Below, one piece after another: positions 2,344-35,341 of a DNA stretch of 64,000 bases. Source of the DNA: Deltaproteobacteria bacterium (lineage in GTDB: Bacteria > Bdellovibrionota_B > Oligoflexia > Oligoflexales > Bog-1112). Numbering within the stretch: position 1 is the first letter of the stretch; each line of letters begins with the position of its first letter. The stretch is taken from positions 130,819-194,818 of the forward strand of contig CANJLI010000001.1 of the NCBI GenBank assembly GCA_947475005.1, written 5' to 3'. Below the pieces are notes generated by a model that worked only from the letters and a program-made list of their open reading frames with translations, ran no database searches and had not been told where the DNA came from. Position numbers and translations under genes: made by a program.

Positions 2344-2911
2344 CTTTTCTTTTCTTTTCTTTTCTTTTCTTTTCTTTTCTGTGGAACCAGCTGCGCAGTT
2401 TCCACACCTCCTTGCCTCGCAATGGGAGAGCAGTGGGAGTCCTGTCGGCTACCATGTTAGATGCCAAGGCCGGCGCTCGCTCGGGGCCTCCCACCCTCTC
2501 AAAATCGCAGACAAAGTTTCCGTCATAGAAGCAGTTTCTCGGCTGCGATTTGTGACCCGGGTAGGTCCTCCCAAGCGGCTGCCCTTGGCCCCTCAAATGG
2601 TAACCGAAAGAAATCCCACTGCTCTCCCGTAGCTGCAAAGAGTTGGTAGCAGCGAGAGAACGGAAATGTATTTCCAGGATGACGCGCCAAGGGCAGCCGC
2701 TTGGGAGGACCTACCCGGGTCACAAATCGCAGCCGATGACTCACTGTCCATGACGAGAATACTGTCTGCGATTTTGAGAGGGTGGGAGGCCCCGAGCGAG
2801 CGCCGGCCTTGACGTGTCATTCTGGAAATACATTTCCGTTCTCCCATTGCGAGGCAAGGAGGTGTGGAAACTGCGCAGCTGGTTCCACAAAAGAAAGAAA
2901 GAAAGAAAGAA
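2344..2911. repeat. Foldback (near-perfect palindromic) element, copy A: core 2381-2888 with 48-bp perfect TIRs, flanked by (CTTTT)n and (GAAA)n microsatellites
   Basis: TIR-L 2381-2428 gtggaaccagctgcgcagtttccacacctccttgcctcgcaatgggag is the exact reverse complement of TIR-R 2841-2888. Internal modules C 2463-2512 / C' 2764-2813 and E 2540-2589 / E' 2686-2735 are (near-)perfect reverse complements. No credible ORF. Confidence 0.9.
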
Positions 2912-4915: not shown

Positions 4916-6708
4916 TTTTTTTCAAAAAACTCGCGGTAAATGGGTTCAAGAAGTAACTTATCATGAGGCCCTTGAAGAAAAACCGTTCCATCTTTAATAA
5001 ACCAAACCTCCTGAAATAAAGGCAAAGTATCAACCCGATGAGTAGCTGCTAGCAGGAATTTTTTTTCCTCTTTTACTTGTTCGATGATCTCGGTCAAAAT
5101 TTCTTTTTCCATGTGGGGATCGATAGAAGCTGTCGCCTCATCCCACAGCATGATTTTCTTATCCTGCAGCAAGGATCTTGCCAAAACCAAACGTTGCTTT
5201 TGCCCACCTGAAATGTTCATATGCAAAGGTTGGATTTCTTCCTCAATTCCCCCTCGCAACTGAGCGATCTCCGCTTCCATGCGCACTTTCTGCAAACCCA
5301 TCTGTATCTCAGCCAGTTCTTTTTTTCCCTGAAATGACATATTTCCATAGCGCAAATTTTCCGCTACCGAATCGTTAAACAAGAAAGGATCTTGAGAAAC
5401 ATAGGTTGTACCTGCAGCAATCGAGACCCATTCACACGGGCTGTCCCATTTCGTCGGTGCAATCAATCCTGCTAATCCTCTCAACAAGGTTGACTTCCCT
5501 CCCCCACTCGATCCGACAAGGGCAACTGCATATCCAGGGGACAATATCAATCGATCCCCACAGATCCCTTTTCCTGCGGCCATCTGAAAAGAAACGGATT
5601 GGATAGAAACTGGCAGGCTAACCTCTGTACCAGAAACAACCTCCTTCTTTTGAACCGGGGGTTCCAGCAAAATTGGCAAACTCCCTTGAAGAGCTCCAAT
5701 GGTTTCCTTGAATCGTCCGAGTTGCTCACCAATATTACGAAGTGGTTTTAAAAAAGCTCCAAGCGCCCCAAAAAACACAAATAAATTAGAGGGATGAAAC
5801 CACTCAATATTGGCGCGTGTAGCCAGCCAAATAATAATAGAAAAAGAAAGAAACCCCATCAGCTCAATGCTGGGAGCAAAAGAAGCCCGAATAAAAATCG
5901 ATTTTTTAACTTCCTGATAATAGGAATCATTAATCTCATAAAATCGTTTGATTTCGAATGATTCCCCCTGTTGAGCCCGAATAAAGGAAAGCCGTTTTCG
6001 CAGTTCCAACAGGTAGTCCGCAATGAAGCCCATCTTCTCTTGGAAAAATTTTGCATATACCGAAATTTTTTCTCCAACTCCTCCAACCCCTTTTGCAATA
6101 AAAGGGCTGATAGCCAGCAACAACACAGCAATGGGCCAATGCACAAAAAAAAGTGTAATCAAACAAGCCAACATGGTGACTGCATCCCGAACACAGGCAT
6201 TCACCACATCCAGCAGCCGATTTTGCAGGTAAATTACATCGTTCATCAACACCGACATCCATTGAGCCGATGTTTTTTCTTTCACCTGTAAATACGGCAT
6301 TTTTACAATGGAACCAAACAATCGGTCTCGATATTTTTTACAAGCGAACAAAGCCAAATCACCCACAGAGATCTGGTAGAAATAGCTGGCAATCCCTCTC
6401 CCCAAGGCAAAGGCCACCAACAGTAGAGGAATGAGTATCGCTAATTTTTCTGCAGCCACTGTAAACTCAGCAAGTGCAGGGGAAAGAAAGAGATTGCTTT
6501 GAGGAAAAAGGTCAAAGAAAGAGATAGAAGACAACTGAGAAGAAAGTAAAATTTCGATAAAAGGACCAGCGAGCACGATAATAAGGCTTTGGGAAATCGA
6601 CAAGATCAACAACGAAAGGAATAAAACAACGACGCTTTTTTTATGCTCACGAAAGGTTTCGAGCAAGAGACCCAACAAAAAATGAGTCGCAGAAATTGAG
6701 TTCTTCAT
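4912..6708 (-). CDS. msbA: Lipid A export ABC transporter, fused permease/ATPase (MsbA-like)
   Basis: N-terminal 6-TM domain plus Walker A GSSGGGKSTL, signature SGGQKQR and Walker B MLWDEATASID. Start moved to ATG 6706-6708 (MKNSIS...), which forms an ATGA overlap with the lpxB stop. Confidence 0.8.
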   Translation of the reverse strand: MKNSISATHFLLGLLLETFREHKKSVVVLFLSLLILSISQSLIIVLAGPFIEILLSSQLSSISFFDLFPQSNLFLSPALAEFTVAAEKLAILIPLLLVAFALGRGIASYFYQISVGDLALFACKKYRDRLFGSIVKMPYLQVKEKTSAQWMSVLMNDVIYLQNRLLDVVNACVRDAVTMLACLITLFFVHWPIAVLLLAISPFIAKGVGGVGEKISVYAKFFQEKMGFIADYLLELRKRLSFIRAQQGESFEIKRFYEINDSYYQEVKKSIFIRASFAPSIELMGFLSFSIIIWLATRANIEWFHPSNLFVFFGALGAFLKPLRNIGEQLGRFKETIGALQGSLPILLEPPVQKKEVVSGTEVSLPVSIQSVSFQMAAGKGICGDRLILSPGYAVALVGSSGGGKSTLLRGLAGLIAPTKWDSPCEWVSIAAGTTYVSQDPFLFNDSVAENLRYGNMSFQGKKELAEIQMGLQKVRMEAEIAQLRGGIEEEIQPLHMNISGGQKQRLVLARSLLQDKKIMLWDEATASIDPHMEKEILTEIIEQVKEEKKFLLAATHRVDTLPLFQEVWFIKDGTVFLQGPHDKLLLEPIYREFFEKK

Positions 6709-20515: not shown

Positions 20516-20538
20516 GTGGCATTTATCTTTTTTGATTA

Positions 20539-20661
20539 GAGATTGGGTCCACCTACCTTTTTAGGGGCCTTCACCTTTAGATTGGAGATTGGGTCCACCT
20601 ACCTTTTTAGGGGCCTTCACCTGTGGTGAAGGCCCCTAAAAAGGTAGGTGGACCCAATCTC
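20539..20661. repeat. 37-bp unit present three times (two direct, one inverted). Copies 2 and 3 form a perfect 37-bp hairpin with a 3-nt loop.
   Basis: gagattgggtccacctacctttttaggggccttcacc occurs at 20539-20575 and 20585-20621. Its exact reverse complement is at 20625-20661. Confidence 0.95.
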
Positions 20662-20665
20662 ACCG

Positions 20666-20713
20666 CGAGTGTCCCCGAATCTTGCTCTGGGGACACTCGG
20701 GCGGGGTGTCCCC
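20666..20713. repeat. REP-like element, GGGGACAC family (two overlapping hairpins)
   Basis: cgagtgtcccc (20666-76), gaatcttgctct, ggggacactcg (20689-99), ggc, ggggtgtcccc (20703-13). Confidence 0.75.
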
Positions 20714-25992: not shown

Positions 25993-26630
25993 TTTTCTTT
26001 TTCTTTTTCTTTTTCTTTTTCTTTTTCTTTTTCTTTTCTGGAAACCAGCTGCGCAGTTTTCCAGACCTTCCTTGCCTCGCAAGGGGAAATCGAGGATGTA
26101 TTTCCAGAACGACACGTCAAGGCCGGCGCTCGCTCGGGGCCTCCCACCCTCTCTCAATCGCAGAGCTAATCCTCGTCAGAGAATCTAGAACGTCCGCTGC
26201 GCTTTCGACCCGGGCAGGTCCCCCCAAGCGGCTGCCCTTGACGCGTCGTTCTGGAAACACATCTCCGATCTCTCGCTGCTACCAGATCTTTGCAGCTACG
26301 GGAGAGAGTGATTGGATTCCTTTCAGTTACCATTTGAGGGGCCAAGGGCAGCCGCTTGGGAGGACCTACCCGGGTCACAAATCGCAGCCTGGTTTTTACT
26401 GTCCATGACTAGAATACTATCTGCGATTTTGAGAGGGTGGGAGGCCCCGAGCGAGCGCCGGCCTTGGCATCTAACATGGTAACGGAACGGAATCCTATCT
26501 CTCTCCCATCGCGAGGCAAGGAGGTGTGGAAACTGCGCAGCTGGTTCCACAAAGAAAAGAAAAGAAAAGAAGAAAAGAAGAAAAGAAGAAAAGAAGAAAA
26601 GAAGAAAAGAAGAAAAGAAGAAAAGAAGAA
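25993..26630. repeat. Foldback element, copy B: core 26040-26550, flanked by (CTTTTT)n and (GAAAA)n(GAAGAAAA)n microsatellites
   Basis: TIR-R 26503-26550 differs from copy A TIR-R at a single position. The E'-D'-C' half (26341-26467) is near-identical to copy A 2686-2812. The left half is a degenerate complement. Begins 1 nt after the tolC-like stop and ends 1 nt before the rlmM-like stop. Confidence 0.9.
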
Positions 26631-26631
26631 A

Positions 26632-27567
26632 TTATTTTACAGGACGTGTCCACACCCATGTAAGCTCATGCTTGTTCTGACTGAGATGTCCAAGCCACCC
26701 ACCGGGAATCGCGAGAAAAGAATCGATGATTCCGTAATGCTCGCGTCCTTGGAACTTTAGCGTACAGACCGCATGCTGAATCGAAGAAGGCAAGACACTG
26801 GTACTCACCCACTCGTAGAGTTTTTCTGGATAACAAATCACATCACAGAACAACCAACTGGCCTCTGGGTACGCAGATAGATCCACGCGAAAGGCATCGG
26901 CTTCTACAAACTCCACTTCAGAGGCTTGCATAAGATCCTCCCGCAAAGGACTTCGATCAAAGGCTTTCACAGAGGCACCCAGTCGCTGCAGCACCCAGGT
27001 CCATCCTCCAGGAGACGCACCAAGATCGAGACAAACCTCTCCCTTCTGTGGGGCAACCCCAAGTCGAGTGAAGGCCTCCCAAAGTTTCAAATAGGCTCTG
27101 TTCGGAGGACCCAATCGGTCCTCTACAAATTCCCACTCTCCATTCGGTCGAGGACTCGTACACTGAGGCGACGCAAGCACACGATGATCATCGAGCAGTC
27201 TCCACGATCCCAACGGGGGATAGGTGGTAGGCTTTCCCGTAAACACGATGGGCTTGGCTCCAACATGGGGCAATGCTTTTTGGATATACGAAGCCCGACT
27301 TGATCCTGCTGGAAGGTAGGGCCACCAGCTGCGTTGCAAGGAAGTTAACGCCTTGGCACACTCTAAGATGGACTCAAACTGGATCTCATAGAGTTCGGAC
27401 CACTGATTGGCAGCCCAACGCGCAAGGAATGCATCCTCGATCTTGCCCCAAAACAGACGGTCCTGACGGGTGTACACCCGCCCTGCGAGTCGCTCTTCAA
27501 AGAGAGCTTCCAACCCGAGGGGAGCAAGATACGCAATTTGATTGTGGAGACGTTGAAGTTGGTACAA
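26632..27567 (-). CDS. SAM-dependent rRNA 2'-O-ribose methyltransferase, RlmM/FtsJ-like
   Basis: 311 aa. CLDLGASPGGWTWVL SAM-binding motif, then FCDVICYPEK and CTLKFQG, resembling the RlmM C-terminal catalytic domain. Confidence 0.6.
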   Translation of the reverse strand: MYQLQRLHNQIAYLAPLGLEALFEERLAGRVYTRQDRLFWGKIEDAFLARWAANQWSELYEIQFESILECAKALTSLQRSWWPYLPAGSSRASYIQKALPHVGAKPIVFTGKPTTYPPLGSWRLLDDHRVLASPQCTSPRPNGEWEFVEDRLGPPNRAYLKLWEAFTRLGVAPQKGEVCLDLGASPGGWTWVLQRLGASVKAFDRSPLREDLMQASEVEFVEADAFRVDLSAYPEASWLFCDVICYPEKLYEWVSTSVLPSSIQHAVCTLKFQGREHYGIIDSFLAIPGGWLGHLSQNKHELTWVWTRPVK

Positions 27568-33471: not shown

Positions 33472-33558
33472 TCCTCAATAATTTCCATCTGCACACTGCG
33501 CTTTTCAACCCCTCCCAAAAAATGCCCAGCTGTAGCCATATAATTTTGGCGAGGGCCC
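33472..33558 (-). pseudogene. Orphan 3'-end fragment homologous to the C-terminus of the 34346-35341 gene
   Basis: 87 bp align without gaps to 34368-34454 with 13 mismatches counted by eye. In-frame translation ...NYMATAGHFLGGVEKRSVQMEIIEDR* versus ...NYTATAGHFLGEVEKRSAQTEIIEEIQSVLR* for the intact gene. Confidence 0.75.
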
Positions 33559-33671
33559 TACCATCTTTTGTCAATCACCAGATGTCATTATGACAAAAGG
33601 GAACCATTTATTATTGTTGGCCTTATATATTGCCATGGTAGAATCCATAGTATATACAATAGGAACAAAAA

Positions 33672-34345: not shown

Positions 34346-35341
34346 TCATCGCAATACAGACTGGATCTCCTCGATAATCTCCGTCTGTGCACTGCGCTTT
34401 TCCACCTCTCCCAAAAAATGCCCAGCTGTAGCCGTGTAATTTCGGTGTGTGCCCTCAATGTAGGCCACTTGTGCCCAAGTAGGGAGATTGATAAAAACAA
34501 AAGCCAAGTAAGAGATATCGGCCTCCATTAGCTTTGCCAACACTTTCTTAGCTCCTTCGGACAATGCAGTGGTACGAGAGACTGCATAGTAGAACAGGAT
34601 ATCCACTTGAGAACCTACGATGGGCATCGGATGGGTTACCAAATGTTCAAAAATCCGAGAGCAAGTCAACAAATCCACATGCACCAAATTGAGCTGACGC
34701 AATTCCTCAGGAGAAGCCAATGCGAGATAGCTCAAAAAATCCTCTGCTGCACGACTTGGCATCAGCGTAGCCATGGCCTCTGCAAAGGCTGGGTGATGCA
34801 CGGTAAACAGCCCCTTCTTTACAATCGTGTACGCAGTAACAAGCCGATTGCTTGCTACCGCTTGTGCCATCTCTGGAAATAGATCATCGGACAAAGTGTC
34901 CTCTTTCAAATCTTCTGTCAGCCTACGATCGATTTCCTTTGCCATCAAATCTCCCGGCAACGATGCTGCCAAACGCCAGGCCAGCCGTTGTGCATGGGGG
35001 CGCTCACTTCGCACCAAAATCGCAAAGAGCTTATGCGGCTCTGCATGATTGAGGCTTTGATACAATCGCATCGCATTCACCAAACTATTAGCGGGCCACA
35101 GCAAAAAATTCTTTCCAATCAAATGAAACAATTCATTTCCAGCTTGGGTTTTCTCTTTTCGCTTCTGCAGCAAACGCCTTACATGCTCCAAGGTTTCATC
35201 CCCAAAGGTAATCGCAGCTTCCAATGCTTCCGCTCGGGGCATGGCAGAGGTGATGACGGGTGGTTTTTTCTCTTCGGATTGAAAAGAAACACACTGGGTC
35301 AAAAAAGCCGACATAATTGCAACTGCGAAAACTCTTTTCAT
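34346..35341 (-). CDS. Hypothetical lipoprotein (alpha-helical)
   Basis: 331 aa. Signal peptide with lipobox-like LTQC. 4-nt overlap with the upstream 139-aa gene. Confidence 0.5.
   Translation of the reverse strand: MKRVFAVAIMSAFLTQCVSFQSEEKKPPVITSAMPRAEALEAAITFGDETLEHVRRLLQKRKEKTQAGNELFHLIGKNFLLWPANSLVNAMRLYQSLNHAEPHKLFAILVRSERPHAQRLAWRLAASLPGDLMAKEIDRRLTEDLKEDTLSDDLFPEMAQAVASNRLVTAYTIVKKGLFTVHHPAFAEAMATLMPSRAAEDFLSYLALASPEELRQLNLVHVDLLTCSRIFEHLVTHPMPIVGSQVDILFYYAVSRTTALSEGAKKVLAKLMEADISYLAFVFINLPTWAQVAYIEGTHRNYTATAGHFLGEVEKRSAQTEIIEEIQSVLR

Follow-up and report, generated by a model that had tools for sequence, protein, structure and literature searches.

Two copies, A and B, of a palindromic element were found within the window (the whole 64-kb stretch of DNA analyzed here). 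The element is multicopy, insertion-polymorphic, non-coding and selected for local hairpins, and we consider it somewhat better than even (a probability of roughly 55%) that copies A and B belong to an undescribed family of non-autonomous, modular, interspersed palindromic elements. Members of this family range from 105 to 640 bp. The ends carry H, a 27-nt hairpin with a nearly invariant tip and a covarying stem (29 distinct instances). The interior holds zero, one or two copies of Z, an imperfect hairpin of ~200 nt with a sequence-conserved core and covarying stems.

Organization of Copies A and B

Copy A and its two microsatellite flanks (2344-2911) occupy the whole space between two convergent ORFs. 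The left border is formed by a Lys/Ala-rich 92-aa ORF (stop at 2292) followed by a C7/G7 hairpin (2302-2320), and the right border by the stop (2916) of a convergent 311-aa ORF. The features of copy A are as follows:

2344-2380, + strand: left T-rich tract, a perfect (CTTTT)7.4 microsatellite (TRF)
2380-2406, + strand: left terminal hairpin H, whose stem (TGTGGAA/TTCCACA) encloses the fixed tip CCAGCTGCGCAGT (from sequence and stem covariation)
2407-2416, + strand: a motif, CCTCCTTGCC, conserved beside H and pairing with a' at 2853-2862
2419-2633, + strand: Z module 1, sense on the + strand (inverted repeat; on its own the half forms H and a long hairpin), with outer arms 2419-2464 and 2590-2633, cores U_c 2465-2513 and U_e 2539-2589, and an apical loop at about 2514-2538 that includes CGTCATAGA
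2634-2648, no strand assigned: central spacer, which forms a small GCTGC/GCAGC hairpin with adjoining bases
2649-2850, - strand: Z module 2, sense on the - strand (inverted repeat; fold of the reverse-complemented half), with outer arm 2649-2685, U_e 2686-2736, loop 2737-2762, U_c 2763-2811 and outer arm 2812-2850
2853-2862, + strand: a' motif, GGCAAGGAGG, the reverse complement of 2407-2416
2863-2889, - strand: right terminal hairpin H' (from sequence)
2890-2911, + strand: right A-rich tract, a perfect (AAAG)5.5 microsatellite (TRF)

The inverted arms that had been described in the original prediction were recovered, mostly with slightly longer limits. The outer arms, given as exact over 48/48 positions (2381-2428 and 2841-2888), are exact reverse complements over 50/50 (2380-2429 and 2840-2889), and the innermost arms, given as exact over 50/50 (E, 2540-2589, and E', 2686-2735), extend to 51/51 (2539-2589 and 2686-2736). 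The middle arms, described as near-exact (C, 2463-2512, and C', 2764-2813), contain one mismatch, at 2464, and are exact over 49/49 positions (2465-2513 and 2763-2811). C and E' had also been recognized as alike, and this is correct, as both start with GCCAAGG and end with AAATCGCAG, with ~60% identity between. Likewise, the proposal that copy A consists of related ~50-nt units in alternating orientation is supported.

The segments between the arms required reinterpretation. Segments B, F and G had been thought to be partly complementary to one another; instead, B (2419-2474) is complementary to 2578-2633 (79%) and F (2802-2850) to 2649-2697 (84%). The contrast that had been drawn between perfect arms and diverged connectors does not hold either, as the connectors are the outer arms of two ~200-nt Z hairpins, and the conserved pairing lies within each half (C:E) rather than between C and C' or E and E'. 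The resulting module string, a-b-c-d-e-b'-m-f'-e'-d'-c'-f-a', can adopt either of two competing structures: a long foldback built from a:a', c:c' and e:e', or a three-way junction in which a:a' closes two hairpins of ~200 nt (b c d e b' and f' e' d' c' f). The core of Z module 2 is identical to that of Z module 1, and it is because both modules have the same core type that copy A resembles a perfect 510-bp foldback. The folding energies of its two strands were -401.6 and -416.4 kcal/mol versus about -186 +/- 7 kcal/mol for dinucleotide shuffles (z = -28.5 and -32.9), with none of 100 shuffles folding equally well.

Additional copies, the search for which had been recommended, do exist: diverged ones in other genomes (see below) and an inverted second copy at 26.0-26.6 kb of the window. 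The features of this copy B are:

25993-26037, + strand: left T-rich tract, (TTTTCT)7.5, which starts directly past the stop codon of an OEP/TolC-like gene (TRF)
26038-26551, - strand: body of the element, inverted relative to copy A, with H 26038-26064, a 26066-26076, two Z modules, a' 26515-26524 and H' 26525-26551
26552-26631, + strand: right A-rich tract, (AAGAAAAG)9.8, which ends at the stop codon of an FtsJ-type methyltransferase gene (TRF)

With its tracts, copy B therefore extends from stop codon to stop codon of these two convergent genes. It has 85.7% identity to copy A in reverse orientation and 75% in forward orientation, and its left half is decayed. The four arrays at copies A and B are the top-scoring microsatellites (unit <=8 nt) within the window, in which the density of the element is 2 per 64 kb. 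A histone H1-like ORF and an lpx cluster were also noted in the window. These had at first suggested a Chlamydiae-like genome, a reading rejected in view of the HD-domain homologues described below; the organism is of the Oligoflexales/Bdellovibrionota type. The window matches a 180-kb ENA contig and an NCBI MAG. This lineage is represented in ENA ERZ27277814 / NCBI GCA_947467855.1, and its species is carried by several samples (ERZ27263765, ERZ27263779, SRR6754094 and ERR3761218).

Insertion Sites

Comparison with the nearest relative found revealed that copies A and B arrived by insertion beside stop codons, after the split from that nearest sampled relative. The relative is represented in Logan runs SRR22045393/4, with flanking markers at 74% and 84% protein identity, and an HD-domain protein beside the element has homologues from Oligoflexales/Bdellovibrionota MAGs. 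Gene order at both sites is the same in the relative. At site A, however, there are 70 bp between the genes in the relative (locus L006) versus 623 bp in the window, and at site B 5 bp (L041/L042) versus 639 bp. The inserted DNA takes in the T-rich and A-rich tracts, and the T-rich tract is missing from the empty site in L006. At site B, the stop of the methyltransferase gene in the window comes 11 codons before that in the relative. No copy of the element was observed in the relative's sampled contigs (L006, L041 and L042; about 20 kb). These two empty sites, together with the diverged copies elsewhere, support the earlier reading of a mobile element.

No target-site duplication was apparent, in that no consistent direct repeat flanks 10 complete elements, just the inverted T-rich/A-rich tracts. 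Copy B has a possible target duplication (AATT), perhaps coincidental, and no other site has one. The earlier statement that the element exactly fills a gap between convergent genes is accurate for copy A and does not extend to the family. Convergent genes flank both window copies and the copy at L014, and the other copies were found between convergent, tandem or apparently divergent ORFs, usually 25-110 nt from them. In both clean single-Z elements, Z is antisense to the flanking ORFs.

Copies in Other Genomes and Metagenomes

The family was scanned for with its terminal motif, gap allowed (ACCAGCTGCGCAGTT-N8-14-CCTTGCC). In genomes this gave 18 loci, including 2 probable chance matches, and by MAG the loci were distributed as 11 in CANIBL01, 5 in JAGNWK01 (Oligoflexales) and 1 in JACPKR01. 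The scan of metagenomes gave 12 loci, at least one of which (L031) is probably a chance match, and that of viral contigs gave no match. Diverged copies are thus present in two to three further Oligoflexales-type MAGs and in freshwater metagenomes. The conserved U_c block is lineage-specific: exact scans with a 28-mer and a 24-mer of U_c had 0 matches in 185,579 representative genomes, JGI metagenomes and IMG/VR, and relatives were retrieved solely by the gapped terminal motif, not by the internal block. As far as seen, the family is restricted to uncultured Oligoflexales (Bdellovibrionota-like) that form a small clade.

The copies varied in the number of modules they contain. Two-Z forms of ~500 bp were observed at L014, L017, L018 and L027 in addition to window copies A and B, and all six of these full copies share the module order U_c(+), loop, U_e(-), centre, U_e(+), loop, U_c(-). 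Forms with one Z were found at L016 (300 bp) and L026 (343 bp), a Z with its core deleted at L024, and truncated forms in CANIBL01. A mini form of ~105 bp at the metagenome locus L032 is no more than an inverted pair of ends. Many ends occur solo or as tandem half-ends, with H singlets at L012, L017, the JAGNWK01 loci and JGI loci. Short-read MAGs and metagenomes are the source of all related sequences, and the sample is biased, with copy numbers to be read as minimum values. In the CANIBL01 sample, one or two Z modules are present in at least 9 elements (truncated and contig-end-cut copies counted), and there are 22 H ends. Four CANIBL01 copies are full-length (~500 bp) and diverged. The window's own species has at least 3 copies, two in the window and a third in its NCBI MAG.

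Hairpins at the Element Ends

Each end has the same plan: a T-rich tract, H (NNGGAA-CCAGCTGCGCAGT-TTCCN'N') and then ACC(CC)TCCTTGCC. A T-rich tract lies ahead of the terminal hairpin in every related copy; tracts are about 5-45 nt in length, and up to 80 nt at the right end of copy B. The immediate flanks of H are TT(A/T)(C/T)T on the 5' side and ACC(CC)T on the 3' side. Beside H, the a motif CCTCCTTGCC is present in 33/35 ends listed (the exceptions being L012 685 and L017 459), and it forms part of the terminal motif used to scan for the family. In all complete copies the H+a ends are inverted relative to each other.

The stem of H is where the ends vary. Across the 29 instances, both sides have changed in 5/11 stem pairs, with 25 double-changed cells, and one pair occurs as GC 17 times, UA 5 times, CG 4 times and AU once. 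The covariation score was reached by 0/500 shuffles and slid controls collapsed, in a sample of few independent lineages. Compensatory variants were also noted in two pairs within the "tip" of H. The two ends of a single element may differ in their stems while sharing the tip, as at L032 (GAGAGAAA versus TTAGGGAA), L018, L016 and window copy B. Unlike stems with the same tip in one element indicate that selection acts on each local hairpin and not on the identity of the terminal repeats. As judged from these sequences, this points to H being recognized in the single-stranded state.

Z Modules

When an element has two Z modules, these are in opposite orientation, and each strand consequently reads identically from its own end. 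The polarity of Z relative to H is also fixed: read inward, U_e is always 3' of U_c. Every single half that was folded formed H plus one long hairpin. For the full-length copies in CANIBL01, the minimum-free-energy fold was the three-way junction in 3/4 (L014, L018 and L027) and one long hairpin in the fourth, L017.

An alignment of 14 halves gave a consensus for the Z core, with pairing between the C and the E that belong to one half. Compensatory changes were present at 13/34 core pairs and at 7/8 pairs of the 8-bp helix 3, and 0/500 shuffles did as well, although these statistics reflect few independent events, as there are about three Z core types. Helix 3 differs between the three types, being CAGACAGAA/TTCTGTCTG, GATCGG/CCGATC or the window type. 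In CANIBL01 the two halves of an element differ in core type, whereas in the window both halves have the same core. The G.T pair of CGGC/GCTG is present in 7/7 type-1 copies.

Conservation is unevenly distributed along Z. Core identity among most copies of one genome is 95-100% (79-83% for the CANIBL01 type-2 copies), outer-arm identity within a genome is 47-85% (66-85% outside type 2), and apical loops have 52-62% identity. Several conserved motifs are unpaired, namely CCCACCTCTCAAAATCGCAG, CTGCGATTTGTGACCCG and the apical CGTCAxGGAC. The Z cores, unpaired positions included, are close to invariant in three core types and in two species. Such conservation exceeds what a decaying selfish element would need and hints at a function for the cargo. 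A strand test showed no excess of G.U over A.C (77 versus 73 wobble pairs over 15 arms, sense versus antisense), and the antisense fold was slightly more stable than the sense fold in 13/15 arms. With no such asymmetry, the strand test gives no choice between RNA and single-stranded DNA.

Coding Content and Searches for Known Elements

The element has no credible ORF, as had been proposed: its concatenated three-frame translation had 0 matches against 5.8 billion proteins. The original prediction had also recognized no described family in it, and we concur, as searches of plasmids, phages (BLAST) and viral contigs with the element found no similarity, and no Rfam family reached its gathering threshold, either anywhere in the window or on the element at 14 related loci. 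Below threshold, the best Rfam E-values (0.06-0.14) were to unrelated families. Promoter and terminator consensus scans found no such site in either window element.

The earlier claim that the window has no transposase, integrase or reverse transcriptase (RT) was sustained for the ORFs scanned. Pfam searches found no transposase, integrase, recombinase or RT among the non-overlapping ORFs of >=150 aa in the window (those scanned or with precomputed hits, ORFs overlapped by a longer ORF being left out); these ORFs encode housekeeping genes and a polysaccharide cluster. Neither a transposase nor a RAYT-like gene was found beside the related copies, and no RAYT (Y1 HUH transposase) gene was found in the 8-kb stretches around the matches. 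ExbD and FliM are encoded next to solo hairpins, as are proteins that had no Pfam hit; none matched a transposase family. A parent or autonomous IS, with a gene between the same ends, was found neither in the window nor in 30 related loci.

The ideas of a DnaA-box or parS-like site in H, of an IHF site in Z, and of a protelomerase target, a retron-like ncRNA or an AAV-ITR-like flip/flop were considered and dropped, as they lacked a supporting sequence feature or gene.

Comparison with Known Repeat Families

In design, the closest families by analogy are the REPINs and BIMEs. Alternating mosaics of two palindromic units (PUs) and linkers, the BIMEs were described from extragenic regions of enterobacteria by Gilson, Bachellier, Hofnung and co-workers. 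The element is similar in having two related unit types (U_c and U_e) that alternate, specific linker motifs, an extragenic location and a length of several hundred bp. However, it has no sequence similarity to enterobacterial PUs, so the resemblance is of design only; its units are ~48 nt and pair imperfectly into a 200-nt hairpin, and dedicated terminal hairpins bound the element.

REP sequences and REPINs are associated with RAYT transposases (Bertels & Rainey, PMC3116915, PMC3337134; Di Nocera et al., PMC3733652). REPINs are inverted pairs of a small hairpin unit without target duplication (PMC3337134, PMC3116915), and the described REP superfamilies are defined by a tag, GTAG or CGTC, that is unpaired and sits at one palindrome end (PMC3733652). 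The element likewise has a short conserved extragenic hairpin that occurs as singlets and as inverted pairs folding into a larger hairpin, it is intergenic, often at 3' ends, and it lacks a target duplication. H falls within the 20-40 nt of an extragenic repeated REP/REPIN palindrome, and the ~105-bp form at L032 looks like a REPIN. In contrast to REP sequences, H has no GTAG/CGTC tag (CGTC occurs in the Z apical loop only), the element has long T-rich/A-rich tracts at its ends, and the copy density of the family is apparently low. REPINs are also without the one or two 200-nt modules with conserved cores.

Among prokaryotic MITEs, transcribed Correia hairpins are RNase III substrates and ERIC affects mRNA decay (PMC10969869). 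The element shares with Correia/NEMIS and ERIC its small size, multiple copies, non-coding character, terminal inverted repeats, insertion polymorphism and the long hairpins it would form if transcribed. It is larger (~510-640 bp) and more structured than these, with nested modules and selection on local end hairpins, and it has no TA or regular target duplication, with no parent IS identified among the loci covered. As for MITEs in general, terminal inverted repeats, small size, multiple copies and the lack of a transposase are all present, while a duplication of fixed length is not.

The palindrome-associated PATEs, which are derived from IS200/IS605 and linked to the single-strand "peel and paste" mechanism, have subterminal hairpins and no target duplication; IS200/IS605 itself is active on one strand only, with ends that do not form inverted repeats. 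Our element likewise has sequence-specific features in its subterminal hairpins and lacks a target duplication, and the T-rich tetranucleotide (TTAC/TTAT/TTTC) directly 5' of its hairpin is reminiscent of the TTAC-type target of IS608. The element differs in being two-fold symmetric, and TnpA/TnpB were not found. With neither a GTAG/CGTC tag nor the target duplication of a MITE, the element is filed in no named family; it is a previously undescribed variant of a general kind, the bacterial interspersed palindromic repeat.

Proposed Mode of Spread and Alternative Explanations

By analogy with these systems, the element may be mobilized in trans via folded H, following the logic of REP/REPIN-RAYT (HUH tyrosine transposases) and IS200/IS605. 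An enzyme encoded elsewhere in the genome would recognize the ends as folded single strands rather than as double-stranded inverted repeats. This enzyme is hypothetical, as no transposase or RAYT-like gene was found in the window or beside related copies. The missing target duplication, although negative evidence only, fits REP-like elements. The T-rich/A-rich flanks may ease melting of the ends, and could have grown later into microsatellites by slippage. After insertion the element would be mostly passive. A read-through transcript from either neighbor gene would contain the U-tract, H, CCUCCUUGCC and the sense Z, and so form very stable hairpins. By analogy with Correia and ERIC (PMC10969869), such hairpins could block 3' exonucleases or draw double-strand RNases, without intrinsic termination. 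The bidirectional intrinsic terminator suggested in the original prediction is itself unlikely. This is because on both strands a T tract comes before the hairpin and an A tract after it, the reverse of the order in such a terminator.

A different reading is that Z, perhaps with H, is a functional structured RNA, either stand-alone (~200 nt) or a cis-acting module of 3' or 5' UTRs, for which the element is a vehicle or, with its tandem-inverted layout, gives each convergent transcript one sense copy. The conserved core beside covarying stems, the conserved unpaired motifs, the fixed polarity of Z relative to H and the G.T pair kept in all seven type-1 copies are all as such an RNA would have them. 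However, we regard it as a possible but unlikely explanation, since the arms have no excess of G.U and are slightly more stable as antisense, no promoter-like or terminator-like site or Rfam match occurs at the element, and Z lies antisense to the flanking ORFs in both clean single-Z elements. The perfect 50-bp duplexes of copy A would be unusual among stable bacterial RNAs, and the multicopy insertion behavior also speaks against it. We think it rather doubtful that the element is a conventional MITE, that is, an IS deletion derivative whose ends are read by a DDE transposase as double-stranded DNA, despite its being small, non-coding, multicopy and insertion-polymorphic with a variable interior and having long terminal inverted repeats that start TG...CA (TGTGG/TGGGG). 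There is no consistent target-site duplication and the 30 related loci include no parent element with a gene between such ends. Solo ends and tandem half-ends are common, and stems differ between ends with each hairpin kept, which indicates selection on folding and not on repeat identity.

A host-selected structural element, such as a cruciform/H-DNA insulator or a barrier to convergent transcription at gene ends that is retained for its effect on supercoiling or read-through, would account for GC-rich palindromes between easily melted homopurine/homopyrimidine tracts, for the convergent setting of both window copies and L014, and for structure equally conserved on both strands. Nevertheless, we consider this explanation very unlikely: the empty sites of the nearest relative indicate that the element is not needed there, other copies are at tandem or divergent ORFs, the polarity of U-tract, hairpin and A-tract is opposite to that of an intrinsic terminator, and a purely structural role would leave the conserved unpaired core sequence unexplained. 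That the palindrome is a chimera produced by a short-read assembler, as the original prediction had cautioned, is extremely improbable. Most independent contigs do end at or inside the element, the NCBI MAG contig L002 is chimeric and switches to another copy half-way, and copies A and B are both spanned by one assembly only, a 180-kb ENA contig. However, the name of the spanning contig (k141_7940576) indicates k = 141, which exceeds the length of the perfect arms (about 50 nt). In addition, an ordered architecture of asymmetric modules that pair with the center recurs, in the same module order, in diverged copies from the MAGs and metagenomes of other projects, which makes an artefact unlikely.

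Significance

A more speculative proposal, which we view as distinctly improbable, is that Z represents a new class of structured nucleic acid of ~200 nt, RNA or folded single-stranded DNA, whose invariant core is read by a dedicated protein. If so, Z might, to name two examples, act with a recombinase or nuclease encoded in trans as its guide or scaffold RNA, or serve as a signal for strand-specific priming or recombination. Z would then have been spread by a hairpin-ended carrier, the two-fold design of which puts one sense copy on the exposed or transcribed strand. The element resembles selfish repeats of the REPIN/BIME/MITE type more than it does a new kind of system, and if it is merely a selfish repeat it would be an ordinary, though elegant, further example of these.

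In practical terms, the element has a cost, as it breaks short-read assemblies and has made at least one contig of a public MAG chimeric. The microsatellites that flank it, having four unit lengths at four ends, are natural strain markers. New to the record is a highly structured repeat family from barely studied uncultured Oligoflexales, which are relatives of predatory bacteria. The anatomy of the family is unusual for a bacterial repeat, with end hairpins that have a fixed tip and a free stem and one or two 200-nt cargo hairpins with near-invariant cores, and this makes it a good candidate for the discovery of a new hairpin-recognizing enzyme or of a structured RNA or single-stranded DNA motif.

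Variant and Partial Units at Related Loci

Additional variations on the element were observed at related loci (L-numbers) in other genomes and metagenomes. These involve the 27-nt terminal hairpin (H), its adjoining conserved motif (a, reverse complement a') and the Z module, an imperfect hairpin of ~200 nt inside the element:

L022 2664-2770 and 3880-3988 (MAG JACPKR01), variant unit of ~110 nt
L025 1930-2010, L029 4586-4680 and L040 6800-6881, and upstream of H in L012, L014, L018 and L019, tandem partial duplications of H
L024 6206-6408, core-less Z module

The L022 units, composed of an a'-like strand and a G7/C6 hairpin together with H and a, are able to fold into a small three-way junction. 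Mutually inverted, they flank the gene for a 308-aa secreted protein on both sides, and the second was placed mid-way in an 18-bp palindrome. The partial duplications were of two kinds, with either the 5' half of H (TTT..GGGGAACCAnC) in tandem or the 3' half of H together with the a motif (TTCCCCAAACCCCTCCTTGCCATG, three times). L029 and L033, which represent the same locus, differ by one such unit. These duplications look like the products of slippage or footprints at element ends. The Z module in L024 has retained its outer arms and lost the conserved core between them (ACACGGCC-ACCCTTCTATCTGGCTGCCCGTGT).

In L025, from the Oligoflexales MAG JAGNWK01, Rfam group II intron D1-D4 matches (125 and 51 bits) were found at 5441-5746, about 3.4 kb away from a solo H. 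There is no apparent link between these matches and the hairpin repeat.

The repeat family of copy A has also caused a chimera in one publicly available MAG:

L002 6937-7467 (NCBI GCA_947467855.1, contig CANIJO010000028.1), chimeric path

This same-species contig runs into copy A and, within the core common to the copies, passes over to a third one with an inverted central segment, after which it breaks off.

Other Features of the Window

Repeats additional to copies A and B, the two modular palindromic elements, were:

20530-20702, small palindromic repeat, unlike copies A and B, in the gap separating a thioredoxin-fold gene from an HlyD-type gene
33472-33559 and 34368-34455, 88-nt direct repeat (85% identity)

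The former comprises a 46-nt unit twice in tandem, then a perfect inverted 37-nt copy, with an additional hairpin (13-bp stem) at about 20668-20702. One copy of the direct repeat directly follows a PALP-family gene; the other lies within a 331-aa ORF that runs in the opposite direction and had no Pfam match.

From 42200 to 64000, G+C content falls from about 45-55% to 30-40%, and the ORFs encode glycosyltransferases, a Wzy-type ligase/polymerase, a flippase, FkbM methyltransferases and sugar-nucleotide enzymes. The region looks like a polysaccharide/O-antigen-type cluster, possibly one acquired horizontally.

Genes Adjoining Copies A and B

2014-2292, + strand, Lys/Ala-rich ORF (92 aa) made up of 39-nt (13-codon) tandem repeats, beside copy A
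26632-26660, 3' end of an FtsJ-type methyltransferase gene, beside copy B

The Lys/Ala-rich ORF resembles histone H1/Hc-type proteins and had no Pfam match. It is probably a real gene, because an 88-aa counterpart occupies the same place in L006, an insert-free contig of the nearest relative. The methyltransferase adjoining copy B ends in ...TWVWTRPVK, whereas that of the insert-free relative (L041 1800-1870) runs 11 codons longer. Insertion of copy B may have replaced the 3' end of the methyltransferase gene and provided a new stop codon.
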